From an uncultured Solirubrobacteraceae bacterium (GTDB lineage: Bacteria > Actinomycetota > Thermoleophilia > Solirubrobacterales > Solirubrobacteraceae): a DNA stretch of 64,000 bases. Shown here piece by piece: positions 1,743 through 46,861 of this stretch (within the stretch, counting starts at the first letter, position 1; every line of letters begins with the position of its first letter). The translations under genes and the position numbers were made by a program. The DNA lies in contig CAWFWA010000013.1 in assembly GCA_963819435.1 (NCBI GenBank), positions 146,392 to 210,391 on the forward strand, given 5' to 3'. The notes below the pieces were generated by a model. That model searched no databases. It was given only the letters and a program-made list of their open reading frames with translations, and had not been told where the DNA came from.

Positions 1743-3281
1743 CTACTCGGCGCTGCGCAGCAGCGCGATGAACGTCAGCGCGAGGATCTTCACATCGAGC
1801 CCGAGTGACCAGTTGGCGATGTAGTAATTGTCCCACTCCACCCGTTCGGCCAGCGACGTCTGCCCGCGCAGACCGTGCACCTGGGCCCAGCCGGTGATGC
1901 CGGACTTGACACGGTGGCGGTCGCCGTAACGGACGATGTCCTGTTTGAACAGCTCGACGAACTCGGGACGCTCCGGGCGGGGGCCGATCAGGCTCATCTC
2001 GCCCTTGAGCACGTTGAACAGCTGGGGCAACTCGTCGAAGGACGTGCGCCGCAGAAAGCGCCCGACGGTCGTGCGACGGTCGTCGCCCTCGACGCCGCCC
2101 GGCGCGGTGTCGCCGCCGAGCAGGAACTCCAGCGGGCCCGAGTCGTCGTCGTCGGGGTCGACGTGACCGCCATGCAGGCGCATCGAGCGGAACTTGTACA
2201 GATCGAAGGCCTTGCCGTCACGCCCGACGCGGCGCTGGCTGAACAGCACGGGGCCACTCGAGCTGAGACGCACGGCGAGCGCCGAGAGCAGGATCACGGG
2301 CGACAGCAGCACCAGGAAGAACAGCGCGAGCGCGCGGTCGAGGCCGTGCTTGATCGCGAACTGGACGCCGCGCGGGTCGACCGTGGTGAAGGACATCAGC
2401 GGCAGCCCGCCGACCGTGTCGTAGCCGACGCGGTTGTTGATCGTGTCGAACATGCGCGGAACGACCGATACCTCGACGCTGAGTTCCTGGCAGCGCTGGA
2501 TCAGCCGGCTCACGCGCTCGTCGGCGACCGAGGAGAAGGCGACGATCAGGTTGCGCACGCCCGTGCGCATGACGGTCTCGTCGAGATCCTCGACGGTGCC
2601 GAGCACCGGCAGGTCGCGGCCGCCGACCTCGGCGATCGAACGGGGGTCCTCGTCGAGGAAGCCGATCGGGGCCAGCCCGTACTCAGGGTGACTCTCCAGG
2701 CGCCGCGCAACCTGTGCGCCGACGACGCCGGCGCCCATGATCAGGACGGGCTTGCCGACCAGCCGCCGGGCGCGCGCCCAGCGCTGTGCAAAGGACAGCA
2801 CGATGCGCCCGATGCCCACGCCGAGCATCGCGAACAGCCATCCGCGCACGACGACCGACTGCGGCGGGGCCTGCCCGTTGGCGAACAGGCCGAGCACGGC
2901 GGCGGCCATCGCGCCGATCGAGACGGCGCTGATCACGGGGACGACCCCGTCGAGCACCAGCGCACGCAGGCGCGTGCGGTAGAGCCCGCGCAGGTAGAAC
3001 AGCAGCACGACGAACACCGGGAATGCGAGCAGCGGCTCACGCAGGGTGCTCGGATGCAGCGCGCGATCGATGCCGCCCTCGGCGATCACGACCGCCAGGC
3101 AGACGAAGAAGAAGTCGACAGCCGGTCGCAGCGCCCTCCAGCCGGCGCCCTCCAGCAGCCACTGCAGGCGCCCGCCGAACGTACCGCCGGGGAGGGCCTT
3201 CGGCCGTGGCGCCGAGCGCGACAGCTCGCCCTGCAGCGGCAGGGTCGTGGAAGTCTGCTGAGTGATTGGTGGGCGCGCCAT
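1743..3281 (-). CDS. Polyprenyl-phosphate glycosylphosphotransferase (WcaJ/WbaP-like priming transferase) #1
   Basis: N-terminal TMs, CoA-binding-like region (MGAGVVG), KFRSM, DELPQLFNVLKGEMSLIGPRPERP, GITGWAQV. Confidence 0.93.
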   Translation of the reverse strand: MARPPITQQTSTTLPLQGELSRSAPRPKALPGGTFGGRLQWLLEGAGWRALRPAVDFFFVCLAVVIAEGGIDRALHPSTLREPLLAFPVFVVLLFYLRGLYRTRLRALVLDGVVPVISAVSIGAMAAAVLGLFANGQAPPQSVVVRGWLFAMLGVGIGRIVLSFAQRWARARRLVGKPVLIMGAGVVGAQVARRLESHPEYGLAPIGFLDEDPRSIAEVGGRDLPVLGTVEDLDETVMRTGVRNLIVAFSSVADERVSRLIQRCQELSVEVSVVPRMFDTINNRVGYDTVGGLPLMSFTTVDPRGVQFAIKHGLDRALALFFLVLLSPVILLSALAVRLSSSGPVLFSQRRVGRDGKAFDLYKFRSMRLHGGHVDPDDDDSGPLEFLLGGDTAPGGVEGDDRRTTVGRFLRRTSFDELPQLFNVLKGEMSLIGPRPERPEFVELFKQDIVRYGDRHRVKSGITGWAQVHGLRGQTSLAERVEWDNYYIANWSLGLDVKILALTFIALLRSAE

Positions 3282-3337: not shown

Positions 3338-3919
3338 TTAGCGACTCGCGCTTTCGCGCCGGCCGTCCGCGCCGGCACGCCGCGTGAGCAGTCCGAGCGA
3401 CACGAGAATCGCCGCCCCGAGGACGATGTAGAGGATGTCGCTACCGGGAATCGTCGAGCCCTGGGTGCTCGCGGGGATTCGTTCCGCGGCCGGATAGAAG
3501 CTCGCGTGGCTGACGGCTGAGCTCTGGCTCGCGGCGTGCCGGCTCTTGCCCGAAGCGGGCGCCGTCGCGTTGCCCTTGCTCGAGCCGCCCTGACCGCCGG
3601 CGGAGCCTTTGCCGGCGGGCGCCGAAGTGGTCTGTTCGGTGGTCGACGTCGACGTCGCACCCTGAGACGTGGAGGTGGTTTCGCTGGACGCGCTCGTCTG
3701 CCCGGCCGAGCCAGACGGCGCAGACCCCGAGCCACCCGAGCCGCCCGAGCCGCCACGACCTTTGGGGCCGTTGAGCAGTGCCGAGCCGAGCACCGCCTGG
3801 TTGCCCTGGCCCGGGCCGCCGTAGCCGCTGAGCAGCGAGCTCGCCAGCGCAGGGACGGGCAGGGCGGCCGTGGCCGCCAGAAAGACCAATGTCTGGATTA
3901 CGATGCGATGCGATTTCAT
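3338..3919 (-). CDS. Secreted Gly/Ser/Thr-rich protein with C-terminal TM anchor and Arg tail (candidate glycoprotein acceptor #1)
   Basis: SD-like AAGGAAG before ATG 3919; signal peptide ending PALA; low-complexity GSG/STT tract; IPGSD-ILYIVLGAAILVSLGLLT-RR. Confidence 0.8.
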   Translation of the reverse strand: MKSHRIVIQTLVFLAATAALPVPALASSLLSGYGGPGQGNQAVLGSALLNGPKGRGGSGGSGGSGSAPSGSAGQTSASSETTSTSQGATSTSTTEQTTSAPAGKGSAGGQGGSSKGNATAPASGKSRHAASQSSAVSHASFYPAAERIPASTQGSTIPGSDILYIVLGAAILVSLGLLTRRAGADGRRESASR

Positions 3920-4133: not shown

Positions 4134-6242
4134 TCATGCAAGTTGTTGGGCTTTGTCGAGGATCAGGCGGTTCAGTTCGTCGATGTCGACCCGGTGCCCT
4201 TCACGTACGCGCTGCAGCGTTTCGCGGATCAGCCCGTCGTGCGGGCTCAGGCGCCGCGTCCGTTCCAACAGGTGCAGCGCAGCAGCGCGATCGCCGCGTT
4301 CTGAGGCGATCGCGGCGCGCTCGAGCGTCGCATATGCGTCGCTGCCGTCACGCGACAGCGCCCGCGCAAACTCGCGGTCCGCGTAGGCGAGATCGCCGAA
4401 GCGCAGAGCGATGCTTCCCGCCAGCAGGTAGGGCTGATCGCTCAGGGGGTTCAGTTCGGCGGCGCCGTTGAGTGCCGCGTAGGCCTGGCGCGGGGCCGTC
4501 GGCCAGATGCGCGTGGCCCGCTGAACCTTCAATTCGCCCAGCCACGGCGCGATCAGCGACGCCGCGCCGGCCAGCGCCAGCACGGCGAAACCGGCGAGCG
4601 CGATGCGTCGCGTCGCAGGTGGCAGGCCGCGGGCCCCCGCAGAGGTCTCGGCAGAGGTGTCGGCACGGGCGTCGGCAGGTGCGTCGGCGCCGCCCGGCCC
4701 GGCCGATTGCAGTGGTCGCCTGTACGCGAGCGCGCAGGCCAGGCCGAGCAGCGCGAAGGCGGGCCCGCCCAGTCCCGCAAACTCCCAGAACCAGTCGAAG
4801 CTGCCGTGCACCAGCCAATAGGCGAAGCCGGCCAATGCGGCCGAGGCGACGGCCACGGCGAGGGGATCGGTGCGGCGGCGAGCCGCCGAGAACAGCACGC
4901 CGCCGGCGGCGAACAGCGCGGCGCCCAGGCCGCCTATCGCGAGCAGCGCACCGACGATGCCGGTCTGGGAGAGCGTGCGCATCTCGATGCTGTGGGGGTA
5001 GTGCGGCGTCTCTTCTTCGTGACCCTTGGCGAGGTACTGCTGGGCGAAGTTGTCGGCGCCGATGCCGACGAGCGGGTGCGCCTTGAATTCGTCGAGCGCC
5101 ACACGGTAGAAGTCGTAGCGCCCGCTGCCGAGGCCGCTGACCAGGCGGTTCACCTGAGCGTTGTCCGCGCCGTAGCCGCCCTTGAACGTCTGCCAGCCGT
5201 GTTCGGCGCGTGCGATCGGATTGCCGGCCGCCACCCACCCCCCGGCGAGCACCACGACGAGCGCCAGCACGGCGATCGCGGCGACGGCGCGCTTGAGGCT
5301 CGCGCGTGAGCCCTCGGGGATCGCGCCGCGGCTCTCTGCGGCCGCGGCGAGTGCGGCAATCGCGCCGACCGCCACCGCGGCGATGAGGATCGCCACGGTC
5401 GCACTGTGCAGCGCCGCGTGCACGTTGCCGCCGTGCACGCTGTCGCCGACGTGCAGCACCGTTTTGACGGTCGCGCCAACGCCGGCGGCCACGGGTATGA
5501 GCACGAGAAACGTGCGCACGCGGCCCGGTAGGAGTGCGAAGACGAGGACCAGGATGACGACCGTGGCATACAGCGAGCCGCGGCTCTGGCTGAGTAGGGC
5601 GACGTCGGCCAGCAACACCGCACCGCCGGCCAGCGCACCCCGCAGCGCCCAGTGCAGACGCTCGCTGCGGCTGAGCAGCAGCGCCGGCCACAGGGCCATG
5701 CACCAGACCGCCGCGCAGGCGTTTTCGTAGTCGGCCGGGTATTTCAGGCGCCCGTCGTTGAACAGGGCCAGCGGGTGCGCGACGCCGTCGAGGTGCAGCA
5801 GCACGCCCACGGCGAGCCCGATCATCGCGAGCACCCACGCGCACAGCAGCAGCGCGGCGCTGCGCCCGGTCTGCGGCCACAGCGCGAACAGCGAGAACAC
5901 GAGCAGGTAGACGAACGTGCGGTTGGCGCCTTCCCACGCGTCGCCGGGCACCTGCGCCCAGAGGATCGACATGTAGCTGAGCGCCGTGTACAGCGCCAGG
6001 CAGGCGACCGCCACACGCACAGCCGTGGGAACGCGCGCCAGGCGTAGCGGCACCGCGGCCACGGCAATGACCAGCAGGACGAGCAGGATCACGCCGCCGG
6101 GCGCCCAGTGGGTGAGCGGATAGCCCGCATCGCTGCCCGCCCAGATCACGAACAGCGCGAGCGCGCCGAGCGCCGGGACCACGACGGGCGTCTCGCGCAC
6201 CGTCTGCATCAGCCTGGCCGTCGATCGCGCGTAGCTTGACAT
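4134..6242 (-). CDS. O-antigen ligase (Wzy_C) family polytopic membrane protein with C-terminal TPR-like region (candidate oligosaccharyltransferase #1)
   Basis: Many TMs; YENA, SQSRGS, GRYDFY...HPLVGIG, HYPHSIEMRTLSQTGIVG, VHGSFDWFW; helical tail with LNPLS/LSPHD TPR-like ends. Confidence 0.85.
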   Translation of the reverse strand: MSSYARSTARLMQTVRETPVVVPALGALALFVIWAGSDAGYPLTHWAPGGVILLVLLVIAVAAVPLRLARVPTAVRVAVACLALYTALSYMSILWAQVPGDAWEGANRTFVYLLVFSLFALWPQTGRSAALLLCAWVLAMIGLAVGVLLHLDGVAHPLALFNDGRLKYPADYENACAAVWCMALWPALLLSRSERLHWALRGALAGGAVLLADVALLSQSRGSLYATVVILVLVFALLPGRVRTFLVLIPVAAGVGATVKTVLHVGDSVHGGNVHAALHSATVAILIAAVAVGAIAALAAAAESRGAIPEGSRASLKRAVAAIAVLALVVVLAGGWVAAGNPIARAEHGWQTFKGGYGADNAQVNRLVSGLGSGRYDFYRVALDEFKAHPLVGIGADNFAQQYLAKGHEEETPHYPHSIEMRTLSQTGIVGALLAIGGLGAALFAAGGVLFSAARRRTDPLAVAVASAALAGFAYWLVHGSFDWFWEFAGLGGPAFALLGLACALAYRRPLQSAGPGGADAPADARADTSAETSAGARGLPPATRRIALAGFAVLALAGAASLIAPWLGELKVQRATRIWPTAPRQAYAALNGAAELNPLSDQPYLLAGSIALRFGDLAYADREFARALSRDGSDAYATLERAAIASERGDRAAALHLLERTRRLSPHDGLIRETLQRVREGHRVDIDELNRLILDKAQQLA

Positions 6243-13043: not shown

Positions 13044-14623
13044 GTGGAACGACCTAACGATCCGGCAGAGCGGCCGATGGCTGGCGCCGCAGGGCCCGCG
13101 CGAAGGCTCTCGGCCACTACGTCGAGATAATCCGGGAGCGGCGCAAACTGATCATCCTGTGCGTGGTGGTCGTGACGTTGGTCGCCGGCGCCTACGCGAA
13201 GCTCGCGTCGCCTGAATACAAGGCCGAAGCGCATCTGCTCGTCACACCGGTCAACTCGGAAACGAGCCTGATCGGCCTGGGCCTGATCAGCTCGACCGGC
13301 AATCCGACCGGGGACGTCTCCACCGCCGCAAGCCTGGTGACCACCTCCGAAGTCGCGGCGCTCGTCGCAGCGAAAATCGGCGGCACGACCGGCCGCGCCG
13401 TGCTCGGCGAAGTAAGCGCCGTGCCGGTCGCTCAGAGCAACGTCGTGGCGGTCACCGGCACAGCGTCCACCGCCCACGGGGCCCGAGCGGTCGCCAACGG
13501 ATTTGCGATCGCGACCGTCCAGAACCGGACGCGGACCCTGCATCGCCAGCTCGAAGCAATCATCCCGACACTCAAGTCACAGGTGGAAACCCTGCCGCGA
13601 CCCAGCGAAACGGGCAGGGATCGCTGGGCGAACGACTTGCCTCGCTGCAGACCCTGCTCGCGGGACCCGACCCCACGATCTCGGTGGAGTCGCTCGCCCA
13701 GCGTCCGGATGCGCCGTCTGGCCGCGCACAAAACTGAGTGTCATCACCGGAGCACTGGTCGGGCTGATCATCGGCCTTGGGGCGGCTTTTGCGTTGGAGA
13801 GCCTCGACCCGAGAGTACGTCGCGAGGAGACGCTGCGCCGTATGTTCCGTCTGCCTGTGCTCGCACGCGTTCCGCGCGAGCGCCGACCGGCCTCTCGCAA
13901 CCTTCCCGTGCGTCCCGGTGAACTCTCGCCCGCTGCCCAGGAGAGTTACCGAATGCTCCGCGTCGCACTCGGCGCGCGCGCGCGCGTCAAGGGCAGTCGC
14001 TCGATCATGGTCACAGGATCGACCCGCTCGGAGGGCAAGTCGACCGTGTCCCTGAACCTCGCGGCGACGCTGGCCTTTTCCGGCCACAAGGTCGTCCTCG
14101 TCGAGGCCGACCTGCGCCGGCCCTCGCTCGCCGGCGCGCTGGACCTGCTCGCCAAGCGCGGCAGGCGAGGGACGGCCGGTGTGCTGATGGGTGAGATCAC
14201 GCTCGAGGACGCGCTGATGCCCGTCACACAGCTGAGCGACAACCTCAGCGCCCTGCTCGTAGAGCAATCCGCGCCGTACATGGCGGACGGCCTTCTCGCC
14301 GCGAGCGACGAAATCGTACGCCAAGCAGAGGGGATCGCCGACTACGTCATCTTCGACTCGCCGCCTGTCACGGAGGTCAGCGACGCCGTCCCGTTGAGCC
14401 GCCACGTCGATGACGTGCTGATCGTCGCGCGGCTGGGCCACAGCCGCGTCGACCAGCTGGTGAACCTCGGCGAAGTTCTCTCGCGCCAAGGCGTTCGCCC
14501 TCGGGTTTGGTGATCGTCAGCGACGACGACAGCCACGGCACCGGCTACTACGCGCCCAACCCCTCTTCGGCCAACCGGCCCGGGGGCAAGCTGCGCGATC
14601 AGATTCCCGCGATCGGGGCGTAG
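13044..14623 (+). CDS. Wzz/Wzc-type polysaccharide co-polymerase fused to BY-kinase domain; frameshifted, ends approximate
   Basis: N-terminal TM then PEYKAEAHLLV; ESYRMLR, Walker A EGKSTV, EADLRRP, IFDSPP; GYY near C-terminus. Confidence 0.85.
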
Positions 14624-14630
14624 CACCGCC

Positions 14631-16046
14631 ATGAACACGCGGCCGCGCGCGCTCGAGCTGGTCTCGTCGACGATCCTCGCGGGGGCCGCGATCGTCGGTG
14701 TGCTCGCAGCCATCCAGCCGCTGATCGCGGTCGGCGTAGTCGGCGCGATCGTGCTCGCGTATGTCGTCTTCAACGACCTTGCGATGGGCTTCGCCGTGCT
14801 CGCGTTTGTCAGCTTTCTCGACACGCTGCCCACCTCGGGTGCACTCAGCCTGGCCAAGGGAGCCGGCGTACTCATCGCGCTGGCGTGGCTGGCGAGCTTC
14901 GCCATGGACCGAAGCGGCGAGGGCGACTTCTTCTCCGAGCACTCGCTGCTGACGTGGATTTTGATCGCATTCTTCGGCTTGGCCACGCTGTCGCTGCTGT
15001 GGTCCCCCAACTTCGGCGTCGCAGCGGAATCGCTCACCCGCTACGCCCCGAACATCTTGCTGCTCCCGATCGCCTACACGGCGATCCGCACGCGGCGTGA
15101 CATCAAGCTGGTGATCGGCGCGATCATCTTCGGCGCGCTTCTGGCCGCGGCGTTCGGCATCCTGCAGCCGCCGAACCCCAACCTGATCGCGGAAAGCTCG
15201 CGTGCCAGCAGCACCGTCGGCGACCCGAACGAACTCGCGGCCTTTATGCTCGTCGGCCTCGCGCTCGGCGCTGCGATTGCCGTCGGGCAGGACGGCCACC
15301 GTGGATGCGCTTCGCTGGCGCTCTCGCGGTCCCGATGTGCGCCGCCACCGTGTTCCTCAGCCTGTCGCGCGGCGGCCTCGTAGCGCTCGGCGCGAAATGA
15401 TTGCCGGCACGCTCTTCGCCGGGCGCTTTCGCGTGGTCTCACGGGAATGCTGCTGCTGGTCGCGCTGGGCGGCGTCGTCTACTTCACCGCAATCGCCCCG
15501 CTCCCGGCGCGCGAACGGGTCACCTAGTCAAACGGCGGGACGGGACGTTCGGACATCTGGAAACTCGGCCTGAGGATGGTTCGGGCGCATCCCCTGGAAG
15601 GCGTCGGCGTTGGCCAGTTCCCGGAGGTGTCAGCGGACTACGCGCTACAGCCCGGCACGCTGGAACGTGCGGATCTCGTGTTCTCCAGCGCGCCGAAGGT
15701 AACGCACAACACCTATCTGGAGATCATGTCCGAGGATGGCATCCCCGGCTTCCTGCTGTTCCTCGCGCTGCTCGGCTCGTGCCTGGCCGCTGCGCTGAAG
15801 GCGGCGCGTGTGTGGGCCGCGCGCGGGGATCCGGCGATGGAGGCTCTGGCTCGTGCGGTCTTCCTCGGCCTGCTCGGCATGCTCGTCGCCGACTTCTTCA
15901 TCTCCGAGATGTACAGCAAGCTCCTGTGGGTCATGCTCGCGCTTGGCCCGGCGCTGCTGGCGGTCGCGCGTGCGGAGGCCGCGGCAGCGGAGACCGAGCA
16001 GACAACGCCCGCCAACGCCTCGCGAGCACTCACGCGCGTCTACTGA
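14631..16046 (+). CDS. O-antigen ligase/Wzy-type polymerase (no TPR tail); frameshifted
   Basis: Polytopic; GDPNELA, SLSRGG, GRSDIW, HPLEGVGVGQF, THNTYLEIMSEDGIPG; directly follows Wzc. Confidence 0.85.
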
Positions 16047-21543: not shown

Positions 21544-21603
21544 CCGTGCCGGCGTCGGCTGCGAGACGTCAGCGACTCGACTGCTCTCATCCCGACATCC
21601 TAC

Positions 21604-21640
21604 TTGACAGAGCGATCGCTATTGCGATAGCGTTCGTTAT
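21604..21640 (+). promoter_or_regulatory. SigA-type promoter (TTGACA-18-TAGCGT) overlapped by two imperfect 14-bp palindromes, candidate TetR operators
   Basis: TTGACA 21604-21609, TAGCGT 21628-21633; AGAGCGATCGCTAT 21609-21622 and ATAGCGTTCGTTAT 21627-21640. Confidence 0.65.
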
Positions 21641-21735
21641 CGGCGATGTCGGTGGCCGACCGGCTGTCGGGCCACCCCGCGACCAGACAGAGCAAAACTT
21701 CAAAGCGTCGCGACGCGATTCGATAGGAGCAGCTG

Positions 21736-23123: not shown

Positions 23124-24674
23124 TCAGCTGAGCGCGGCCGGCCTTGACCAGTTCGCGCGCCGACCCGGGGGCGACGACGAACAGGACCGCCAGATACACG
23201 AGCCGAGCAGCGTCTGCGCGGCCAGCAGCACGAGCCCGACGAGCGTCCCGCGGTGGTCGGCCTGGATCGCGAAGTGCTCCAGGCAGAACAGTGCGCCGGC
23301 CATCAGGGTGGCGGCCAGCGCGGGCGGCCAGATCTCACGCGTCAGGTCACGAAGATCGATGCCCAGCGCGCGCGACATTCCGCGCACCGCATATGCGGCC
23401 ACGCCGACGGCGGCCGCCGACATGCCGACAGCGACCCCGACGACGCCGAAGGGCACGCCAGCGCCGACGCAGACAAGCGTGAGCAGCAGGGAGAGCCCGT
23501 GCATGCGCGGGAGCATGTCGGTGCGCGCGTTCGCCTTCCATGCCTCGCTGGCAATCGAGTCCAGCGAGAGCGCAGCGCAGTAGACGCCGAGGGCCATCGC
23601 CGCGTGACCAGCGTCGCGCCACTGCCCGCCGAAGACCAGGACAACGGCCGGCGTTCCGAACGGCACGAGCAGCATGCCCGCCGGAAACGACAGCACGCAC
23701 AGCCAGCGCAGCGCCCGGAGCACGGCGCTGCGAAAGCGGGCGTCGTGCGCGGAAAGCCGCGAGAACGCGGGCAGCAGCACGTAGCCGCCCACGCTGATCA
23801 CGGCACCTAGCGATTGGGTCCCGACACGCGAGGCGTACGTGAACTGCCCGATCGCGCCGGCGCCGCTGAAGCGACCAAGCGCGAGGATTGGTATCTCCTG
23901 CACGAAGCGGCGAATCAGGTTGCCCGCCACCACCGGGCGTCCGTAGCGCGCGAGTTCACGCCAGGTGTCGCGTTTCGCCAGTCGCGGCCTCGGGCGCCAG
24001 CGTGCGAAGACCCATGCGGCGACCACGTTCAGCAGGGCCGACGCGTAGGTCCCGATTACCAGCGCCCAGACGCCGAGTCCGGCGGCGGCTGCCGGGATTG
24101 CCCCAGCCGCGAAGAAGATCGTCGCCAGCGGGTCGATGAACACGCGCCGCGAAAACGAGAACCGCCGCATCAGCAGCGCGTCGGGCACGATCGCCAGGAG
24201 GCGCAGAAGCATCCAGCCGGACAGCACCGCCGCGACGACGCCCGTTTCGTGGCTGTGGAAGAACAGCCCGATCAGCGGTGCTGCGGCTAGAGCGATCAGC
24301 GTCAGGCCAACGCCGGACACGATCGTCGCGAGGAAGGCCGAGTTGATCGCCTCCTCGAGCTGCTGACGACGATGAACGAGCGCTGCTTCGATGCCTGACT
24401 CACCGACGACGGCCCCCGCGTTCACCACCACGGCGCCCGCCGCAAAGCGCCCGAAGTCGGCCGGCGTCGCGAGCCTCGCGAGCACGAGATACGCGACGAA
24501 CGTGAGCAGCTGGCTGAGGATGTAGCCGGCGCCGGCGAGGCCCGCCCCGCGCGTGACCACGCCACTGAGACCATCGGGGGCCGGATCAACGCCCTCGCTG
24601 ATCACCGCATCGGAGAGCGCGGCGATGTCGCCTTCGACGATCTCGGCGTCACCGCCGGGCATCTGCGTATCCAT
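23124..24674 (-). CDS. wzx: Wzx-type (PST/MOP) oligosaccharide flippase
   Basis: VLARLATPADFG, APLIGLFF, LGVWALV, LPAFSRL, VFGGQW; about 12 TMs. Confidence 0.88.
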   Translation of the reverse strand: MDTQMPGGDAEIVEGDIAALSDAVISEGVDPAPDGLSGVVTRGAGLAGAGYILSQLLTFVAYLVLARLATPADFGRFAAGAVVVNAGAVVGESGIEAALVHRRQQLEEAINSAFLATIVSGVGLTLIALAAAPLIGLFFHSHETGVVAAVLSGWMLLRLLAIVPDALLMRRFSFSRRVFIDPLATIFFAAGAIPAAAAGLGVWALVIGTYASALLNVVAAWVFARWRPRPRLAKRDTWRELARYGRPVVAGNLIRRFVQEIPILALGRFSGAGAIGQFTYASRVGTQSLGAVISVGGYVLLPAFSRLSAHDARFRSAVLRALRWLCVLSFPAGMLLVPFGTPAVVLVFGGQWRDAGHAAMALGVYCAALSLDSIASEAWKANARTDMLPRMHGLSLLLTLVCVGAGVPFGVVGVAVGMSAAAVGVAAYAVRGMSRALGIDLRDLTREIWPPALAATLMAGALFCLEHFAIQADHRGTLVGLVLLAAQTLLGSCIWRSCSSSPPGRRANWSRPAALS

Positions 24675-35236: not shown

Positions 35237-36370
35237 TTATGCCCCGTCGTACACGCGCGCGAGCGCGCCGGCGACGACCGACGGCGCGCACACGGCGCGA
35301 ACGCGCTGCAGGTTGCGCGTCCCCTCGCTGCGATCCGCGGCCAGCCGGCCGATCGCCTCGGCCAGTGCGCCGGCATCGCCGGGTGCCACGAGCGCGTGAT
35401 CGCCGAGGAGCTCGTCGAGCGCGCCGGCGCGACTGGCGGCGATGGGTAGCGCCGCGGCCATCGCCTCGGCGGCGGCCAGGCCGAACGTCTCGCCAGAGCG
35501 CGACGGCACGAGCGCGATCGACGCATGCGCGCGCAGCCGCGCGAGCTCGCCATCGTCGACGCGACCGGCGAAGCGCACGCCGCCACCCGCCGCGCGCGCT
35601 TCAAGCTGTGCGCGCTGCGGACCATCGCCGGCGATCACCAGCTGCACGCCGGCGAGACGGCACGCGTCGATTGCGACGTCGATGCCCTTCTCCGGCGCCA
35701 GGCGCGAAGTGACGAGCGCGTAGGAGCCCTCGCGCGCACTCTCGCCGACGGGGATCGAGCGCTGCTGCGCGTCGAGCGCACGCACGGGCGGCGCGATGAC
35801 GTGCACGCGCTCCCACGGCAGCGGCGCGCCGAGCGCGCGCAGGCGCTCGAGGGCGAAGCGGCTGGGAACCACGAAGGCGTCGGCCTGCTCGACGGTGCGC
35901 CGCTGCCACAGCGCCAGCGAGGCGGCGTAGGCGGCGGCCTCGGGCACGCTGCCGCGGCAGTTCAGCCGCACGCCGGGGAGCGTGTCGCGGCCATGGCAGC
36001 GCGTGCACTCGGCGCCGTGCGTGAAGCACACGCCGACCGCGCACACGAGCCGGTACTGGTGCAGGTGCAGCACGACCCGCGCTCCGGCCTCGCGCGCGGC
36101 GGCGAGCGCGCGCCAGCCGAGCGCCGGCAGCAGGTTGTGCGCGTGCACGAGGCGAGCGCCGCTGGCGCGCACGGCGGCGGCAACCTCCTGCGGCTGTCGC
36201 CCGCCGCGCAGCAGCCCGAGGCCGGCGCCGCGTGCGCCGATCTGCGCGGAGGAGCGCTCGAGCAGCTCGGCGGGCTCACCCAACCGCTCGCGGACGAGCC
36301 ACATGAGGTCCTCGACGGCGCGCTCCTCGCCGCCGGTCGTGCGGTAGCGGTTGTGCAGAAACAGGACCAT
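35237..36370 (-). CDS. Glycosyltransferase family 4 with Cys cluster
   Basis: HNRY..GGEE, HAHN, HQYRLVC...CTRC, RLAPEKG, ETFGLAAAEAMA. Confidence 0.9.
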   Translation of the reverse strand: MVLFLHNRYRTTGGEERAVEDLMWLVRERLGEPAELLERSSAQIGARGAGLGLLRGGRQPQEVAAAVRASGARLVHAHNLLPALGWRALAAAREAGARVVLHLHQYRLVCAVGVCFTHGAECTRCHGRDTLPGVRLNCRGSVPEAAAYAASLALWQRRTVEQADAFVVPSRFALERLRALGAPLPWERVHVIAPPVRALDAQQRSIPVGESAREGSYALVTSRLAPEKGIDVAIDACRLAGVQLVIAGDGPQRAQLEARAAGGGVRFAGRVDDGELARLRAHASIALVPSRSGETFGLAAAEAMAAALPIAASRAGALDELLGDHALVAPGDAGALAEAIGRLAADRSEGTRNLQRVRAVCAPSVVAGALARVYDGA

Positions 36371-36446
36371 CGTGCGCAGGAGCCTATTGGCTGACCGCGC
36401 GGGCGAAACGGCGCAAACCGGCTGCAAACCTAGACTGTCTCGACCG

Positions 36447-38150
36447 ATGACCCTCGCCTCGATCGTGATCCCGACGCGCGCACGCCCCGACTACCTGGAG
36501 GTGGCGCTGCGATCGATCGCCGATCAGGCCTTTCACGCGGGCGCCGAGGTGCTGGTGATCGACGACGCCGGGGCCTCCGAGCAGACGCGCGCCCTGGTCG
36601 AGCGCTTCGGCGCGCGCTACGAGGCCCACGAGCAGCCACTCGGACTGAACGTCGCGCGCAACACGGGCGTGCAGCGCTCCAGTGGCGAGCTGGTGGCGTT
36701 CGTCGACGACGACGTGCGCGCGAGCCCGCAGTGGCTGGGGGCGCTGCTGACCGCGGCGCGCGAGCACCCCGATGTGGAGGTCTTTGCGGGGCCGATCCAA
36801 CCGAGCTTCGAGGGTGCGCGCTGGCGCTCGTGCGGACGCGAGAGCGCACCGATCACGTCACTCGATCTCGGCGCGCAGGACACCGACGCACGCTACGCAT
36901 GGGGCGCGAACATGGCGATCCGCAGGACGGCGCTCGATCGCGTGGGGCCTTTCGAGGAGACGTTGCACGATGGCGGCGACGAGCAGGAGTGGCAGGATCG
37001 TTTTATGGCCGCCTACGGCGGGTCGGGTCGCGTGCTGTATGTCGCCGGCGCGTCCGTGGAGCATCGCCGGGCCGGTCGCGACGCGCACCTGCGGGCGCTG
37101 TGCCGTGCTGCGGCCGTGCGCGGCCGTGCGGCGCGGCGCTTCGACGCCCGTCAGGGGCGAGCGCCTTCGCTGGCGCGCGAGACGCTCACGCTCGCCGGGT
37201 GCGTGGGTCATGTGCTACGCCACGCATGCGCCGGCGGGCTGACGATGGTCGCCCACAGCATCGGCCGCCTGCGCGAGGCGCTGCGCGAACAGGCCGGTGA
37301 GCCTGCGCCGCCTCTGCCGCGCCCCGGTGAGTCGGCAAACGGCGCGGGCGCCGAGGATTTCCTGTCCGGAGCGAGCGGAACCGTCGGCGGCTTTGACGCG
37401 CTGGCGCGCGCTGCGCGCGACACGCTCGCCGACGCCGGCGAGGTGTTGAGCGGGCGCCGTGCGCGCCTGGCGCTGGCTGCGCGGCGGCGGCCGCCCACGC
37501 GGCGCGTGCTCGTGCTCGGCATCGAGCGCCCCGAGCACTACGCCCTGGCGGCGCGCGCGCAGGCCGAGCTGCAGCGCTCGCGCCACGAGGTCGAGCTGCA
37601 CGTCGCAGCCCCGCACGGGCTGGGCAAGTTCGAAAACCTCAACCGCCTGCTCGCGGCCCACCCGGCGGGCGGCCACGACTGGCTGATCTTGCTCGACGAC
37701 GACATCGAGCTTCCGCGCGGCTTTCTCGATCGCTTTGTGTTCCTGTGCGAGCGCTTCGAGCTGTCGCTCGCCCAGCCGGCGCACCGCCTGAACTCGCATG
37801 CGGCCTGGCCGCAGACGCGCCGGCAGCCGGGCAGTGTCGTGCGCGAGACGCGATTTGTCGAGATCGGCCCGCTGACGGCGTTCGCGAGCGACACGTTCGC
37901 GACGCTGCTGCCGTTTCCCGAGCTGCGTATGGGCTGGGGCCTGGACGCGCACTGGGGAGCGGTCGCCCGCGAGCACGGCTGGCGCTGCGGCGTGACCGAT
38001 GCGGTGGCGATCCGCCACCGCGTGGCGCCTGCCGCCGAGACCTACTCGCGCGAGGCGGCTATCGCCGAGGCGCGCGCCTTCCTCGCCGAGCGCCCGTACG
38101 TCAGCGCGCAGGACGCGCGACGCACCGTGACGACGCACCGCCGCTGGTGA
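36447..38150 (+). CDS. Two-domain glycosyltransferase: GT2 plus DUF707-like GT-A domain
   Basis: IVIPT, ARNTG, FVDDD, GANMA, GDEQEW; second domain LLDDD, LAQPA, FVEIGP, GWGLD, GVTDA..IRH. Confidence 0.8.
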   Translation: MTLASIVIPTRARPDYLEVALRSIADQAFHAGAEVLVIDDAGASEQTRALVERFGARYEAHEQPLGLNVARNTGVQRSSGELVAFVDDDVRASPQWLGALLTAAREHPDVEVFAGPIQPSFEGARWRSCGRESAPITSLDLGAQDTDARYAWGANMAIRRTALDRVGPFEETLHDGGDEQEWQDRFMAAYGGSGRVLYVAGASVEHRRAGRDAHLRALCRAAAVRGRAARRFDARQGRAPSLARETLTLAGCVGHVLRHACAGGLTMVAHSIGRLREALREQAGEPAPPLPRPGESANGAGAEDFLSGASGTVGGFDALARAARDTLADAGEVLSGRRARLALAARRRPPTRRVLVLGIERPEHYALAARAQAELQRSRHEVELHVAAPHGLGKFENLNRLLAAHPAGGHDWLILLDDDIELPRGFLDRFVFLCERFELSLAQPAHRLNSHAAWPQTRRQPGSVVRETRFVEIGPLTAFASDTFATLLPFPELRMGWGLDAHWGAVAREHGWRCGVTDAVAIRHRVAPAAETYSREAAIAEARAFLAERPYVSAQDARRTVTTHRRW

Positions 38151-39343
38151 AGGTCCTCGTCGTAGCGGAGTTCTACCCGAGCAGCCGCGATCCTGTGATG
38201 GGCGTGTGGGCGCACCGCCAGGCGCTCGCCGCGCGCGACGCCGGCGCGGAGGTGCGCGTGCTCGTGCTCAACCGCCTGGTCCCGCCGCGGTCCGCGCTGG
38301 CGGGGGGACCGGCGGCGATCGCGGGCGCGCTTGCCGAGCGCGTGCGCGAGCCGCGCGAGCAGACGCGCGACGGCCTGACGATCGGCTACGTGCCCTACGT
38401 GTCGCCCGAACGGGAGCGCTCGTATGCCTCGTGGGGAGCGTGGGCGGCGACACCGCTCGCGCTGGCGATGACGCGCATGCGGCGCAAGTTCGCGTTCGAT
38501 GTCGTGCACGCACACAACGCCGTCCCGGCCGGAGATGCCGTTCGTCGCGCGCGCACGCTGCGCACGCACACCGCGCCGCTGGTGGTCTCGGTGCACGGCG
38601 GCGACGTGCTGTACACGGCGGCGCGGGTTCGCGGCGGCGGCGAGGCCGTACGCCACACATTCGCGCGGGCGCGCCTGGTGCTCGCCAACAGCGCCGGCAT
38701 CGGCGAGCTGGCGCGCGCGCACGGTGCAAGCGAGGTGCGCGTCGTGCATCTCGGCACAGACGTCCCAAAGGCGGCACGGCCGCCCGAGCGCGGCGTCGCG
38801 CCGACGCTCGTGACGGTCGCTCATCTGGTCGCACGCAAGCGCCACGCCGACGTCCTGCGCGCGCTCGCCGTGCTGACGCCTCGCCATCCCACATTGCGCT
38901 ACGCGATCGTCGGCGACGGACCCGAGCGCGGTGCGCTGGAACGGCTGGCGGCACGCCTGGAGATCGCCGATCGCGTCGACTTCCACGGACAGCTGGCCCC
39001 CGCGGAGGCGATCGAGCGGGCGCGGGAGTGCACGCTGTTCGTGATGCCCTCGACCGAGGAGGCATTCGGCGTGGCCTACGTTGAGGCGATGGCCGGCGGA
39101 GTCCCGGCGATCGGCTGCCGTGGCGAGGCCGGGCCAGAGGAGATCGCCGCGGCGGGCGACGGCATGGTGCTCGTACCGCCCGGTGACATCGAGCGCCTTT
39201 CCCAGCGCGTCGATGAGCTGCTTTCCGATCCGCACAGGCTGCGCGAGGCGCGCCAGCGGGCGCGAGCGACGGTGCTGGCGTACTTCACGTGGGATCGCTG
39301 CGGGCAGCAGACGCTCGCCGCCTACGAGCAGGCGCTGCGATGA
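38147..39343 (+). CDS. Glycosyltransferase family 4 (TuaC-like)
   Basis: VHAH, SVHGGDV, HLVARKRH, EAFGVAYVEAMAGG; GTGA overlap with upstream gene. Confidence 0.9.
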   Translation: MKVLVVAEFYPSSRDPVMGVWAHRQALAARDAGAEVRVLVLNRLVPPRSALAGGPAAIAGALAERVREPREQTRDGLTIGYVPYVSPERERSYASWGAWAATPLALAMTRMRRKFAFDVVHAHNAVPAGDAVRRARTLRTHTAPLVVSVHGGDVLYTAARVRGGGEAVRHTFARARLVLANSAGIGELARAHGASEVRVVHLGTDVPKAARPPERGVAPTLVTVAHLVARKRHADVLRALAVLTPRHPTLRYAIVGDGPERGALERLAARLEIADRVDFHGQLAPAEAIERARECTLFVMPSTEEAFGVAYVEAMAGGVPAIGCRGEAGPEEIAAAGDGMVLVPPGDIERLSQRVDELLSDPHRLREARQRARATVLAYFTWDRCGQQTLAAYEQALR

Positions 39344-40443
39344 AGCCGCTGCTGTTCGTCACCGGCCACGCGCCCGCCTACCGCGTGGGGGCGCTCGAGC
39401 GCCTGCACGAGCGCGAGGGGGTCGAGTTGGCTCTGTTCGGGGGCCGCTACAAGCACGGCGGCCCGGGGTTTGAGCAGGCAATGACCTTTCCGCACAGACG
39501 CGTACGCCCGCGCGAGCTCTACGCACTCGCGTCGAGCGGGCGCTATCGCGCGGTCGTCTGCCCGACGGGCGGGCGCCTGGCGCTGCTGGCGGCGTGGGCG
39601 GGCGCGCGGCGCGCGCGCGTGCCGCTGATCCTGTGGGCGTCGCTGTGGGCGCACCCGCGCAGCCTGGCGCACGCCTTCAGCTTCCTGCCGCTGCGCAGGC
39701 TGTACCGCACGGCCGATGCGGTCGTGACATACGGCCCGCACATCAGCGCCTATGTACAGAAGCGCGGCGCGGACAACGTGTTCGTGGCGGCACAGTCGGT
39801 CGACAACGACTTCTGGCGCGCGCCGCAGACGGCGCCCCCGACCCTGCGCGCCTGGCCGCAGGACGCCGAGCTGCGCTTCCTGTTCGTCGGGCGCGACGCA
39901 CGCGAGAAGGGCGTGCCGGTGCTCGTCGATGCGTGGCGCCAGGCGGAGCTGCCGGCGCCGGCGAACGCGCTCGTGCTCGTGGGCACCGGCGCGGGCCGCG
40001 CGAGCTTTGCGCCCGCCGGCCTACGGCGCGAGGGCGACGCGGGAATCGTCTCGCTGGATCCCGTCGAACCGCACGAGCTGCGCGCGATCTACGAGGCGTG
40101 CGACGTGCTCGTCGTGCCCTCGATCCCGACTCCCACGTTTCGCGAGCCATGGGGGCTGGTGGTCAACGAGGCGATGGATCGCGGACTGGCGGTGATCGCA
40201 TCGGACGCCGTCGGCGCGGCCGCCGGCGGGCTGGTGCGCGACGACGTCAACGGCGTGATCGTCCCGGCCGGCAACAGCTCGGCGCTGGCGGTGGCGATCC
40301 GCCGGCTGGCCGGCGACGGCGCGCTGCGCGCGCGGCTGGGGCGCCAGGCGGCGCAGGACGTTCGCGCGTACACCTACGATGCCTGGGCGCAGGGCTTCTG
40401 CGAAGCGCTGGCAAGCCTCGGCATCGCCCGCGGGCGTTGGTAG
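39340..40443 (+). CDS. Glycosyltransferase family 4
   Basis: FVGR..EKG, VVPS, EPWGLVVNEAM; ATGA overlap with upstream gene. Confidence 0.9.
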   Translation: MKPLLFVTGHAPAYRVGALERLHEREGVELALFGGRYKHGGPGFEQAMTFPHRRVRPRELYALASSGRYRAVVCPTGGRLALLAAWAGARRARVPLILWASLWAHPRSLAHAFSFLPLRRLYRTADAVVTYGPHISAYVQKRGADNVFVAAQSVDNDFWRAPQTAPPTLRAWPQDAELRFLFVGRDAREKGVPVLVDAWRQAELPAPANALVLVGTGAGRASFAPAGLRREGDAGIVSLDPVEPHELRAIYEACDVLVVPSIPTPTFREPWGLVVNEAMDRGLAVIASDAVGAAAGGLVRDDVNGVIVPAGNSSALAVAIRRLAGDGALRARLGRQAAQDVRAYTYDAWAQGFCEALASLGIARGRW

Positions 40444-40460: not shown

Positions 40461-40991
40461 ATGAGAACCGCCCTCTCTCAGAGCCGCGGCGCAGGCCTGG
40501 CGCTGATCGGCGCGCTGGTGCTGCTCGCGAGCCTCGCGGCCGTCGCGAACGCCGACATCGGCACGACGATCATCGAACGCTGCACGCACGGCAAGAGCAT
40601 CAGCGGCTACAGCCAGCAGGCCTACAAGCGTGCGCTGCAGGAGCTGCCGACGGAAGTCGAAGAGTATTCCGACTGCGCCAACCTGATCCGCCGGGCGCAG
40701 CTGAGCGCGACGGGACGCGGGGGGACTGGCACGCCCGGCCCGGCGATCACCGCGACGCCATTGTCGCCGGGAGAGCAGGCCAAACTCAGCAAGGTGCCGA
40801 AGACCGGCGCCGGGGCGCTGCACGTCGGCGGACAGCTGGTGCATCCCGGCGTCGTGCACGCAAACATCTCCTCGGCGTTGAGCGCGCTGCCCGGCCCGCT
40901 GCTGGCGGTGCTCGCGTTCCTGCTGGCGTGCGCAGTCGCACTCGGCGGGCGAAGCGTGGGGAAGGTGATACGTGACCGCCGCTCCGGCTGA
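40461..40991 (+). CDS. Secreted protein with 2-Cys helical domain, Gly/Thr/Pro linker and C-terminal TM anchor plus basic tail (candidate glycoprotein acceptor #2)
   Basis: Signal peptide ending VANA; IIERC...YSDC; TGRGGTGTPGP; LPGP-LLAVLAFLLACAVALGG-RSVGKVIRDRR. Confidence 0.82.
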   Translation: MRTALSQSRGAGLALIGALVLLASLAAVANADIGTTIIERCTHGKSISGYSQQAYKRALQELPTEVEEYSDCANLIRRAQLSATGRGGTGTPGPAITATPLSPGEQAKLSKVPKTGAGALHVGGQLVHPGVVHANISSALSALPGPLLAVLAFLLACAVALGGRSVGKVIRDRRSG

Positions 40992-43437
40992 GCCGTCCGC
41001 CCCCGCGGCGCCCGGCTCTGCGCCGCCCAGCGGGGACATCGGCGCCGGCGCGCTTGCGCGGCACGGTCGGCTGCATGGCCGCCGCAACGGTGCGCGCCAC
41101 CGACGCGTGCCACCCCGTGACCGCTGGCTGGCGCACGCCGAGGCGTGCCTGCCGATGTTGGCGATCGCGGGTGTGCTGTGTTTCGTCGCGTTCGTCGCAG
41201 GCGGCGGGCTGAACCTCAGCGACATGACGACGGTGGAGATCGCGCTGACGCTCGGAGCGGGTGCGATCGCGACGACGGTCGTGCTGCTGGGGCCAGGCGG
41301 CCTGCGCGCGTATGGCGCTTGGCCGCTGGCGCTGCTGCTCGCCTTCACGGCGCTGACCGCGGTCTCGGTCGTCTGGTCGGTGCAGCCGGACGACAGCTTC
41401 AAGGACGCCGGGCGCATGCTCGCCTACTGTGCCGTGTTCGGGGCGTGCATCGTGCTCGCGCGCACGCTGCCCGCGCGCTGGCCGGCGGTGCTCGGCGGCA
41501 TCGCGCTCGCGGCCGTCGTCGTGTGCGGGTACGCGCTGCTGACGAAGGTCTTCCCCGCACGGCTGGACGCGGGTGACATCTACTCGCGACTGCGCGCGCC
41601 GTACAGCTACTGGAACGCGATCGGCCTGACGGCGGCGATGGGCGCGATCGCGTGCATGTGGCTCGGTGCGCGACGCGCCGGGCACGCGCTGCTGACCGCG
41701 CTGGCCTACCCGGCGATGGGCCTGATGCTGCTGACGCTGATGCTCGCCTACTCGCGCGGCGCGCTCGTCGCGCTCCTGCTCGGCCTCGCCCTGTGGTTCT
41801 GCATCGTGCCGCTGCGCCTGCGCGGCGCGGCGGTGCTGATCAGCGGAGCGGTGCTCGCCGGCGCGGTGACGGCATGGGATTTCTCCACGCACGCGCTGAA
41901 CACCGACAGCGTCGAACTCACGGCGCGCAACAACGCCGGGCATCAACTCGGCGCGCTGATCCTCGTGATGCTCGCGCTGCTGACGCTCGCCGGGCTGGCG
42001 TTCGGGTTCTGGACGGGACGCAACGCGCCGTCGATCATCAGCCGCCGGCGCGCAGGCGCGCTGCTGCTGAGCCTGCTGGCCGTCGTCGTGCTCGCGGGCT
42101 GCGGCGCGCTGGCGGTAAGCCACCGCGGCTTCACGGGCAGCATCTCGCACGCCGTGCACGCGCTGACCGACCCGCACGCCGCGGTGCCGCCGAACACGCC
42201 GGGGCGCCTGACGGCAGTCGGCAGCGTGCGCGCGCGCTACTGGAACGAGGCGCTGAAGGTGTTCAAGGCGCATCCGGCGCTGGGCGCCGGCGCGGAAGGC
42301 TATGCGACGGCGCGACTGCGGTATCGCACCGAGACGCTCGACGTCCGCCATGCGCACGGCTACATCGTGCAGACGCTCGCCGACCTGGGCATCGTCGGCC
42401 TGGCGCTGACGCTCGCGCTGCTGGTGGTGTGGATGGTCGCGGCGGGGCGCGCAACGCATCCGTTCAATCGCCGCTGGACGAGCTGGTCGACGCTGCGCGG
42501 CTGGCTTGACCGCGCCGGCAGCGGGGGCTACCCGGCCTGGCGGCGTCTGACCGTGGAGGGCCGCCCGGCGCCGTATTCGGCCGAGCGCGTCGGCCTGCTG
42601 AGCATGCTCTGCCTGGTCGTCGTGTTCGGCATCCACTCGCTCGCCGACTGGACGTGGTACGTGCCCGGCAACGCCCTTGTCGCTTTGCTGTGTGCCGGTT
42701 GGCTGGCAGGCCGTGGGCCGCTGATGGTCGCCGACTCGGGCCCGGCAGCGGCCCGTGCGGGCACCTCCGGCGAAACCACGTTGATCGTCCATCCGCGCCG
42801 CGAAGCACGCGCGCCGGGAGACCTGCGCACTCGCCTGAGCCCGAGCGCGCTGGGCCCGCTGCGCATCGCCGTCGCCGTCGCGATCGTCGTCGGCGCGCTG
42901 ATCGCCGCGTGGGCGCAATGGGAGCCGCAGCGCTCGGCCGACGCCTCCCAGCAGGCGCTGTCGCAGCTCGGGCGCGACCCGCGGGGCGCGCTGGCCTCAG
43001 CGCAGACGGCGGTCTCGCGCGATCCGCTGTCGGCGCAAGCGCTGTTCACGCTGGCGGCCGTACAGCGAGCCGAGGGCAAACCGCTGCTCGCACGCGCGAC
43101 GCTGCAGCGCGCGGTGCGCCTACAGCCCTCCAACCCGCAGACATGGCTGACGCTCGGTGAGTTCGACCTCGCGACAGACAGGCCGCGCGCGGCGGTGCAC
43201 GAGCTGGAAGCGTCGATCTACCTGAACCCGGAGTCGGTATCGCCCGAAGCGATCGCGCAGGGCAACCCGGAAGCGATCGCTACACAAAACGACTACGTGC
43301 AGGCCGTGCGGGCTGTCGTGACACAGGAAGCCGCCGCGAAAGCCGCGCAGCGGCGCGTCAAGCGCGCGCAGCAGCGCCGCAGCGCCCGAAAAGCTCGCCG
43401 CCGGGCGACGACAAGACGCGCGGCCGGCAAACCGTGA
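40972..43437 (+). CDS. O-antigen ligase (Wzy_C) family polytopic protein with C-terminal TPR-like region (candidate oligosaccharyltransferase #2)
   Basis: RLRAPYSYWNA, YSRGA, RARYW..HPALGAG, HAHGYIVQTLADLGIVG, IHSLADWTW; RDPLS, LQPSNPQTW, LNPES TPR-like ends. Confidence 0.87.
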   Translation: MTAAPAEPSAPAAPGSAPPSGDIGAGALARHGRLHGRRNGARHRRVPPRDRWLAHAEACLPMLAIAGVLCFVAFVAGGGLNLSDMTTVEIALTLGAGAIATTVVLLGPGGLRAYGAWPLALLLAFTALTAVSVVWSVQPDDSFKDAGRMLAYCAVFGACIVLARTLPARWPAVLGGIALAAVVVCGYALLTKVFPARLDAGDIYSRLRAPYSYWNAIGLTAAMGAIACMWLGARRAGHALLTALAYPAMGLMLLTLMLAYSRGALVALLLGLALWFCIVPLRLRGAAVLISGAVLAGAVTAWDFSTHALNTDSVELTARNNAGHQLGALILVMLALLTLAGLAFGFWTGRNAPSIISRRRAGALLLSLLAVVVLAGCGALAVSHRGFTGSISHAVHALTDPHAAVPPNTPGRLTAVGSVRARYWNEALKVFKAHPALGAGAEGYATARLRYRTETLDVRHAHGYIVQTLADLGIVGLALTLALLVVWMVAAGRATHPFNRRWTSWSTLRGWLDRAGSGGYPAWRRLTVEGRPAPYSAERVGLLSMLCLVVVFGIHSLADWTWYVPGNALVALLCAGWLAGRGPLMVADSGPAAARAGTSGETTLIVHPRREARAPGDLRTRLSPSALGPLRIAVAVAIVVGALIAAWAQWEPQRSADASQQALSQLGRDPRGALASAQTAVSRDPLSAQALFTLAAVQRAEGKPLLARATLQRAVRLQPSNPQTWLTLGEFDLATDRPRAAVHELEASIYLNPESVSPEAIAQGNPEAIATQNDYVQAVRAVVTQEAAAKAAQRRVKRAQQRRSARKARRRATTRRAAGKP

Positions 43438-45250: not shown

Positions 45251-46861
45251 TCAGTAGGCGCCGCGTCGCGAGAACACGGCGGGGATCGTCTTCAGCAGGA
45301 TCGTCAGGTCGAGCGCGAGCGACCAGTGCTCCAGGTAGATGAAGTCGAGGTGCACGAGGTCATCGAAGTCCAGCTCCGAACGCCCGGAGACCTGCCACAG
45401 GCCGGTGATGCCCGGTAGCACGAGGTAGCGCTTGCGGTGCCAGTCTTCGAGCATGTCGTAGTCGCGCTGGGGCAGTGGCCGCGGCCCGACGAGCGACATC
45501 TCGCCACGCAGCACGTTGATCAGCTGCGGCAGCTCGTCCAGCGAGAAGCGGCGCAGGAACGTGCCCACGCGCGTCAGTCGCGGATCGTCGCGGATCTTGA
45601 ACAGCGCGCCGGTGGCCTCGTTGAGCTCTTCCAGGTCTGCCTGCTGCTCCTCTGCGTCGGTGTGCATCGTGCGGAACTTCAGGCATGGGAAGGGGCGCTG
45701 GCCGATGCCGCGGCGTGTGGAGCGAAACAGCACGGGACCGCGCGAGGTGAAGCGCACCGCGACGACGATCGCCAGCAGCAGCGGGCTGAGCAGCACCAAC
45801 AGGATCGTCGCGCCGATCAGGTCGAACACGCGCTTGAGCGCGAAGTCGACGCCCTCGAACACAGGCGAGCTGAGCTCGAACAGCGGCACCGACTGGCCCG
45901 GGACGAACTCGGCGCGGTGGATCAGGATCTCCATCGTCGACGGCGCCAGGCGAACGCGTACACCGCGCTGGTGGCACTGGTCGACCAGCTCGACGGCATC
46001 CACCTGCGGGAAGTCGGGGTCGGCGATGATCACCTCGTCGATGTGTTCGGAGCCGAGCACAGCGTCGAGCTCATCCAGTGCGCCCAGGGCGCGCAGCCCG
46101 TTGCCGGGCAGTGCGTTGGGCGAGAGGAAGCCGACGACCTCGATCGGCGAGTGCGGCGCGTCTGAGAGCGCGTGCGCTACGTCTGCGATGTGCTTGCCCG
46201 TGCCGACGAGCACCGCACGGCGACGGTAGCCGGCGGCACGCAGCATCGCTCCGGTCAGCCACTCATAGCCGGCGCGAAACGACGACACGTAAAGCAGCGC
46301 GAATGCCAGCGAGCCGTAGAACAGGTAGTAGCTGGTGAAGTGTTCGCCGCTGACGACGGCGAACAGCAGCGCCACGAACGCCACCTGGAACAGCGAGCCG
46401 ACGATCCGCGACAGCCCGGGGCGCATCGAGCGCGCGGCATACAGGCCCGAGCGTGCGAACAGCAGCGCCGTGAGCAGGTATGCGAACGGCAGGATGCGTT
46501 CGGTTTCGTGGAGCGCCGGGTGAAACTGCACGCGATCGAACACCACGGCCTTGAGAATCAGCGCCGTGAAGATCGCCAGCGCGACCGCCACGAAGTCCAT
46601 CGCGAGCAGCGACACGACACGCGCGAGGCGGCGCGCGGTGGACATGCGCAGCAAAAACGAGAGCACAGGCGGGCGCTTTCGCCGCATGTCGCGATCGCCG
46701 GTCTGCTTGCGCGCCGTCACCTCCGAGAGCACCGCCTCCGGCGTCGCCGGGCGCCCAAGGATCGACGTCGCGCGCCCGAGCCTCGGCGGGGCGCCGGAGG
46801 TCGTGCGCGGCTTGGGCGGAGCGGGCGTGTGCGTGGAACGGGGTCCCATCTCACTGCTCAC
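45251..46861 (-). CDS. Polyprenyl-phosphate glycosylphosphotransferase #2
   Basis: KFRTM, FKIRDDPRLT, DELPQLINVLRGEMSLVGPRP, PGITGLWQVSGRS. Confidence 0.93.
   Translation of the reverse strand: MSSEMGPRSTHTPAPPKPRTTSGAPPRLGRATSILGRPATPEAVLSEVTARKQTGDRDMRRKRPPVLSFLLRMSTARRLARVVSLLAMDFVAVALAIFTALILKAVVFDRVQFHPALHETERILPFAYLLTALLFARSGLYAARSMRPGLSRIVGSLFQVAFVALLFAVVSGEHFTSYYLFYGSLAFALLYVSSFRAGYEWLTGAMLRAAGYRRRAVLVGTGKHIADVAHALSDAPHSPIEVVGFLSPNALPGNGLRALGALDELDAVLGSEHIDEVIIADPDFPQVDAVELVDQCHQRGVRVRLAPSTMEILIHRAEFVPGQSVPLFELSSPVFEGVDFALKRVFDLIGATILLVLLSPLLLAIVVAVRFTSRGPVLFRSTRRGIGQRPFPCLKFRTMHTDAEEQQADLEELNEATGALFKIRDDPRLTRVGTFLRRFSLDELPQLINVLRGEMSLVGPRPLPQRDYDMLEDWHRKRYLVLPGITGLWQVSGRSELDFDDLVHLDFIYLEHWSLALDLTILLKTIPAVFSRRGAY

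Follow-up and report, generated by a model that had tools for sequence, protein, structure and literature searches.

A predicted tyrosine O-glycosylation module in Thermoleophilia: WaaL-like membrane enzymes paired with small anchored proteins

Across the class Thermoleophilia, genes for a membrane enzyme with Wzy_C and TPR domains (T) stand beside genes for a small secreted protein (S) that carries a near-invariant tyrosine. In the pair at the centre of this study, from an uncultured Solirubrobacteraceae bacterium, the sequences make it probable that the enzyme, T2, is a dedicated tyrosine O-oligosaccharyltransferase acting on its partner S2 as a minimal carrier, at Tyr69. The gene pairing, the fold, the conserved polar residues and the conservation of the tyrosine are established directly; from these, we infer that T glycosylates S. 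The enzyme-carrier module is real, widespread and apparently undescribed: no description of such a T/S system was found in the literature covered, which included few subscription journals.

Results

The window, that is, the whole 64-kb stretch of DNA analysed, encodes two priming transferases and many glycosyltransferases (GTs) as parts of a large glycan locus, which also contains a Wzx-type flippase (23124..24674, minus strand; domain search), a Wzc-like gene and three Wzy_C genes. As an earlier note on this DNA had described, three GT genes on the plus strand (36351..40443), encoding a GT2 (ORF 36351-38150) and two GT4 enzymes (38147-39343 and, directly before S2, 39340-40443), lead up to the gene for the predicted carrier S2 (40461..40991, plus strand; 176 aa). 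This gene overlaps that of T2 (40972..43437, plus strand), a membrane enzyme of 821 aa characterised by domain search, alignment and a structure model. PGT2, a priming polyprenyl glycosylphosphotransferase identified by domain search, is encoded at 45251..46861 on the minus strand. Also on the minus strand are T1 (4134..6242), a Wzy_C+TPR-type paralogue of T2 placed in the other main clade by domain search, profile and tree, its 193-aa partner S1 (3338..3919) and, directly after S1, the priming transferase PGT1 (1743..3281; domain search). The two priming transferases, which the note had also recognised, are 33% identical. The Wzc-like P-loop gene and, after it, the third Wzy_C gene occupy 13503..16046 on the plus strand; the latter has no TPR, is frameshifted in the assembly and is likely a polymerase. 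Frameshifted genes are numerous between 9300 and 34500 (this Wzy candidate at 14510-16046, GTs, a UDP-sugar dehydrogenase), probably through long-read errors; unlike these, S2, T2, S1 and T1 are all intact.

By their titles, related records belong to Solirubrobacteraceae or Solirubrobacterales, in the class Thermoleophilia; other families are given here as codes, f1 being the window's own. A ferritin-like match (ribonucleotide reductase small chain family) with TetR-like fragments (21207-23054, plus strand) interrupts the glycan locus midway, and a secreted GH5-like glycoside hydrolase (243-1739, plus strand) adjoins PGT1 at its edge; similar GH5-like genes also come after T2 in two related loci (L081, L088). 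Two LCP enzymes are encoded in the same genome, so that a T/S route would not be its sole means of glycan attachment.

The stop of S2 overlaps the inferred GTG start of T2 (at 40972) by 20 nt (40972..40991, plus strand), in agreement with the earlier note. A candidate start was present at 68 related loci; in 63 of them T has its first in-frame start 11-56 nt inside S, at -20 or -26 in 46 of these, and the offset frame is always the same; in the remaining five the candidate start is downstream, mostly in frameshifted assemblies. The overlap exceeds chance and likely serves translational coupling.

The Wzy_C domain of T2 (PF04932) scores 49.1 bits against a cut-off of 31.7, TPRs are also present, and 27 of 27 T members match PF04932 at E<=0.01. 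The structure model (residues 55-790, from an 88-row alignment; pLDDT 93.6) has WaaL as its best PDB match (Foldseek E 6e-6), with Z 21.6 and rmsd 4.5 over 384 aligned residues in VIA-align; by domain score and fold, T2 thus belongs to the O-antigen ligase/WaaL-like superfamily. In a sequence search of the PDB with the T profile, the best 60 of 223 matches were all TPR proteins. Neither PglL_A nor Wzy_C_2 is among the 16 families that the 27 T members match at E<=0.01, and T therefore does not group with the PglL/PglS O-oligosaccharyltransferases (O-OTases). According to PMC12645811 (section 1.2), Wzy_C-type domains cannot by themselves tell O-OTases from ligases.

T2 has 15 predicted transmembrane (TM) helices, with 24 Lys/Arg near inner and 8 near outer loops. 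Residues R206, N215, R262, R420, H462 and D559 are invariant in 88/88 rows of the T alignment, and S261 is also among the invariant residues; by this predicted topology, these seven positions and the TPR would lie on the same outer face. The Arg/Arg/His set presumably corresponds to the catalytic residues of WaaL. All five motifs that the earlier note had listed as common to the two transferases (YxNA, SRG, HPxxGxG, HxxHxxxxxTLxxxGIVG and HxxxDWxW) occur in both T1 and T2. Some T-like matches (G071:C1:537319, G023:C7:127861, G349:C39:64951 and similar ones) end near profile position 533, apparently without a TPR.

S2 contains every element ascribed to it in the note: a signal peptide, the pair Cys41/Cys72, a TGRGGTGTPGP linker, LPGP, a TM helix and a basic tail. 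Its domain is small and helical, with Tyr69 in a D/E-x-x-x-Y motif, and is followed by the Gly/Pro linker and a TM helix with an xPxP cap. No Pfam or NCBIfam family was matched, the model had no fold match in the PDB at E<=0.001, and in the Atlas it met unnamed clusters only; the domain comprises 2761 clusters at 50% identity.

The earlier note passed over the near-invariant tyrosine. Tyr69 is kept in 155 of 156 S2 domains, the sole exception being a lone copy, and Phe replaces it in none of the 155 aligned domains. The residue that follows varies among Ser, Gly, Thr and Ala, so no fixed Ser/Thr exists there. In a representative set (176 domains, 150 independent representatives) the position is Tyr in 167 and Phe in two, and a second column is Tyr in 164, for which reason this set separates Tyr69 poorly from a structural aromatic; 65 of 71 close loci have Phe at that second position. 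The virtual absence of Phe at Tyr69 implicates the hydroxyl group. The linkers of the S2 family contain 6 Tyr in 6039 residues; Ser/Thr make up 17%, and such Ser/Thr-rich linkers could be the true glycosylation sites.

The C-x(30)-C domain proposed in the note describes part of the family: the spacing is found in 68/70 close and 14/18 mid adjacent S2 domains, but in 3/49 distant ones, and being lineage-limited the Cys pair was rejected as a family signature. Nor is LPGP conserved across the class: Asp stands at that Gly in 76%, and a sortase motif was rejected. LPxTG occurs in 3/128 S2-family proteins having a TM helix, S2 itself being without it, and a sortase was found in genome G000. A PEP-CTERM/exosortase route was likewise rejected, PF09721 being found in none of the five genomes searched (88-99% complete) and a TIGR03097 match falling far below cut-off. 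S2 matched no pilin family that would mark it as a type IV pilin and has instead a cleavable-type signal and a C-terminal TM helix. Some secreted proteins (P0126, P0127, P0128, P0129, P0139) carry two to three S2-domain repeats and no C-terminal anchor, and are possibly soluble multi-site carriers. Two tandem S2-domain genes lie beside a single T gene at four loci of family f8 (L104, L111, L119, L156), and at L132 (f6) two S2 domains are joined within one protein.

The S2 domain profile matched 114 of 251 class genomes. As to the co-occurrence that the note proposed to test, T lies within 1.2 kb of the S2 domain in 133/151 loci across the class, comprising 70 of 71 close loci (T after S, the single miss being at a contig end), 18/20 mid loci (drawn from 23 matches) and 45/60 distant loci (hand-chosen among 150 matches listed, mostly at E<1e-5). 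In close kin the entire ten-gene block is syntenic, so that pairing among the close loci proves little. Among the 15 distant misses, nine represent a second copy whose genome also has an adjacent pair; of the others, one is 1.35 kb away, one at a contig end, one in the same genome as the 1.35-kb pair, and three are lone. Altogether, 18/151 S2 loci are without an adjacent T.

Of the 133 pairs, 46 are oriented head-to-head. The stretches analysed around these 46 contain no priming transferase and one similar GT, and next to the pairs lie, among others, holB/tmk, signal peptidase, nrdR or LCP genes; through a switch of orientation and the loss of all other neighbours, S and T thus stay together while the rest changes. 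Linkage of the GT trio to S2-T2 is seen within the order only. A PGT2-like gene is found near 63/70 close pairs, 7/17 tandem pairs at order level and 0/46 head-to-head pairs, and 12/30 T1-like loci have a priming transferase in their 1.5-kb flanks. The parallel pathways envisaged in the earlier note therefore stand in part: the pairs are independent, each enzyme clade having its own partner family, but a priming enzyme proper to each pair is a feature of T2's close kin that is not conserved for T2 beyond them.

Genomes of genus g2 carry both genes at separate sites; at L094, L099, L123, L124, L201-L203, L243 and L245 S and T are unlinked and S is shortened, and the T gene of L243 has one internal TAG. 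A third type of pair within the order (L204-L209, L194, L152) has the S2-domain gene head-to-head with a T paralogue and, in L204-L208, a long conserved cytoplasmic tail. In other families, the S2 domain was found in 1/22 (f2), 2/44 (f9) and 0/21 (f10) genomes, and the f2 locus L194 holds one. Outside the class, it appeared in 1 of about 275 genomes of the phylum, as a weak match (E 9e-5).

The paralogy of T1 and T2, which the note had read from their motifs, escapes pairwise BLASTP (best E 0.066), and a profile was needed: one made solely of T2-clade sequences detects T1 at E 3e-82. S1 and S2, between which the note had seen little shared sequence, have no detectable sequence in common (best E 16). 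S1 has no Cys; it carries a Tyr in SGYG just past signal peptide cleavage, a Ser/Thr/Gly linker, a TM helix and a basic tail, and many relatives have LPFTG. The T family is multi-copy, with 87 of 121 genomes of the order matching T1 at E<=1e-20. At 70 further T loci (the 30 best, including T1 of the window, and 40 hand-chosen among 150 matches listed), an adjacent small protein with signal, linker and TM helix was found in 55, the filters returning none in 15. Seven of the 55 partners have the S2 domain. The other 48 (83-214 aa) belong to unrelated motif types (GY-G/S, DQY, KEY), and all of them have a Tyr within 30 aa of the signal peptide, which in 38 is the sole ectodomain Tyr; the rest of the ectodomain holds 8 Tyr per 2087 residues. 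LPxTG is present in 30 of the 48, their linkers are 23% Ser/Thr, and some ectodomains span only 32-33 aa. A blind filter returned 19/20 near T against 8/15 far from T (Fisher p 0.011), a far set that includes two Tyr/LPFTG-type members and some doubtful ORFs; the loci being kin and the distant ones hand-picked, such p-values overstate the difference. No small partner of this kind was found beside the TPR-less Wzy_C genes of the genome. Far from any T gene, a lone 134-aa protein (G000:C19:229941-230342, plus strand) has a signal peptide with a single Tyr immediately downstream, a Thr-rich linker and an LPFTG anchor, and it is possible that it is a second substrate of T1, acting in trans.

T also occurs in 23/24 genomes of family f23, from another actinobacterial class. 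A partner was found at 9 of 10 T loci there, with Tyr in 8/9 (Asn replaces it in L254) and LPxTG in 8/9, and sortases in 3/3 genomes tested. Three T loci of f10 gave no partner by the filters used. At L251, L255, L256, L258 and L261 (f23), the gene between T and its Tyr/LPxTG partner resembles by its sequence a chain-length determinant, which suggests a capsule-type polymer as donor. In a tree of 53 rows, all 20 S2-partnered enzymes and four partner-less rows fall on one side of a branch with 98% SH-aLRT support, and T1 and the LPxTG, DQY and f23 types on the other; a 118-row FastTree agrees. As read from these sequences, T1 and T2 are old paralogues whose enzyme clades track partner families, and since kin share partner labels, the tree speaks for clustering rather than co-evolution.

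Discussion

The conservation of one tyrosine, the WaaL fold, the pairing, the unrelated partners that also bear a tyrosine and the precedent of WsfB together favour the reading in which T2 acts on Tyr69. A priming transferase and the GTs would build a glycan on undecaprenyl-PP, Wzx would flip it and Wzy may extend it, while S2 would be exported, lose its signal peptide and be held in the membrane by its C-terminal helix. The TPR of T2, which faces outward, would then select the S2 domain, and the Arg/Arg/His site would release the lipid-linked glycan in one step onto the hydroxyl of Tyr69. T1 would act on S1 in like manner; the relatives of S1, most of which have LPxTG, would afterwards be linked to peptidoglycan by sortase.

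One may ask whether the tyrosine motif is merely a docking signal for the TPR, T2 glycosylating S2 on linker Ser/Thr in the manner of PglL. The linkers are disordered and rich in these residues in both partner groups, and PglL prefers disordered Ala-rich regions (PMC12645811). However, no Ser/Thr is conserved, some partner ectodomains are very short, and Phe hardly ever substitutes for Tyr69, which makes this account unlikely. We give as little credence to S2 being a non-catalytic subunit or activator of a T2 that ligates glycan to another acceptor, be it lipid, wall or other proteins. A folded, conserved domain and a conserved overlap suggestive of 1:1 coupled translation would suit such a role; yet the head-to-head pairs are uncoupled, the unrelated partner families have only a tyrosine and an anchor in common, the partners with LPxTG would leave the membrane, and lone copies as well as two- to threefold domain repeats exist.

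It is very improbable, finally, that T2 is a Wzy polymerase or an ordinary polysaccharide ligase, with S2 travelling in a conserved glycan cluster as a passenger or as an anchor for chains. Wzy_C is common to polymerases and the ten-gene block of close kin is syntenic, but the S2-T pair outlasts the loss of that block, a separate TPR-less Wzy candidate is present in the window next to the Wzc-like gene, and searches beside the TPR-less Wzy_C genes of the genome found no such small partner.

For the tyrosine O-oligosaccharyltransferase proposed here, the nearest parallel is WsfB of Paenibacillus alvei, a Wzy_C protein with C-terminal TPR in a Tyr-glycosylating system, as described in an S-layer review (PMC2943079). 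T2 has this domain order too. WsfB and WsaB (Geobacillus stearothermophilus) share with T2 the monoderm host and Wzy_C, and P. alvei has the Tyr O-linkage that is predicted here; their acceptor is a large S-layer protein, whereas here we find small tethers with one key Tyr and several paralogous pairs. Export in G. stearothermophilus, by the same account, is by an ABC transporter, and the T/S pairs of the window stand beside Wzx/Wzy genes. With TfpO/PilO, TfpM and PglS, T2 shares a WaaL-like enzyme gene adjoining a single candidate substrate gene (PMC12645811), as holds for most S2 loci, where the neighbour would be the substrate; the substrates of these other enzymes are Gram-negative type IV pilins, modified on Ser/Thr, whereas S2 is a non-pilin anchored at its C-terminus. 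In Actinomyces oris, an actinobacterial enzyme gene, lcpA, lies beside that of the sortase-anchored glycoprotein GspA, which LcpA glycosylates (PMC7831098); LcpA is an LCP phosphotransferase with a fold unrelated to that of T2, and S2 itself has no LPxTG. The resemblance to WaaL lies in the membrane-domain fold and, presumably, in the conserved Arg/Arg/His set; T2 differs in its extra TM helices and TPR, and its monoderm lineage is not known to have LPS.

More tentatively, and at somewhat less than even chances, Thermoleophilia and one family of another class may possess a paralogous family of tyrosine O-OTases with their own minimal carriers, which would fix surface polysaccharides to the membrane or, via sortase, to peptidoglycan; proteins would then serve as tethers in place of LCP attachment, and the Tyr sequon would be short and could be transplanted. 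The S-layer review (PMC2943079) treats Tyr O-glycosylation as a question still open; the known acceptors of this modification are large S-layer proteins. With partners of 83-120 aa whose ectodomain has just one Tyr, the enzyme, its site and its specificity can all be tested directly, and a genome with paralogous pairs lends itself to clean cross-pairing. If the proposal is true, glycoengineering would gain new O-OTases and a short tag to go with them, an envelope module found throughout a class of common soil bacteria would be explained, and the module would be a little-known way of tethering a sugar coat to the cell.
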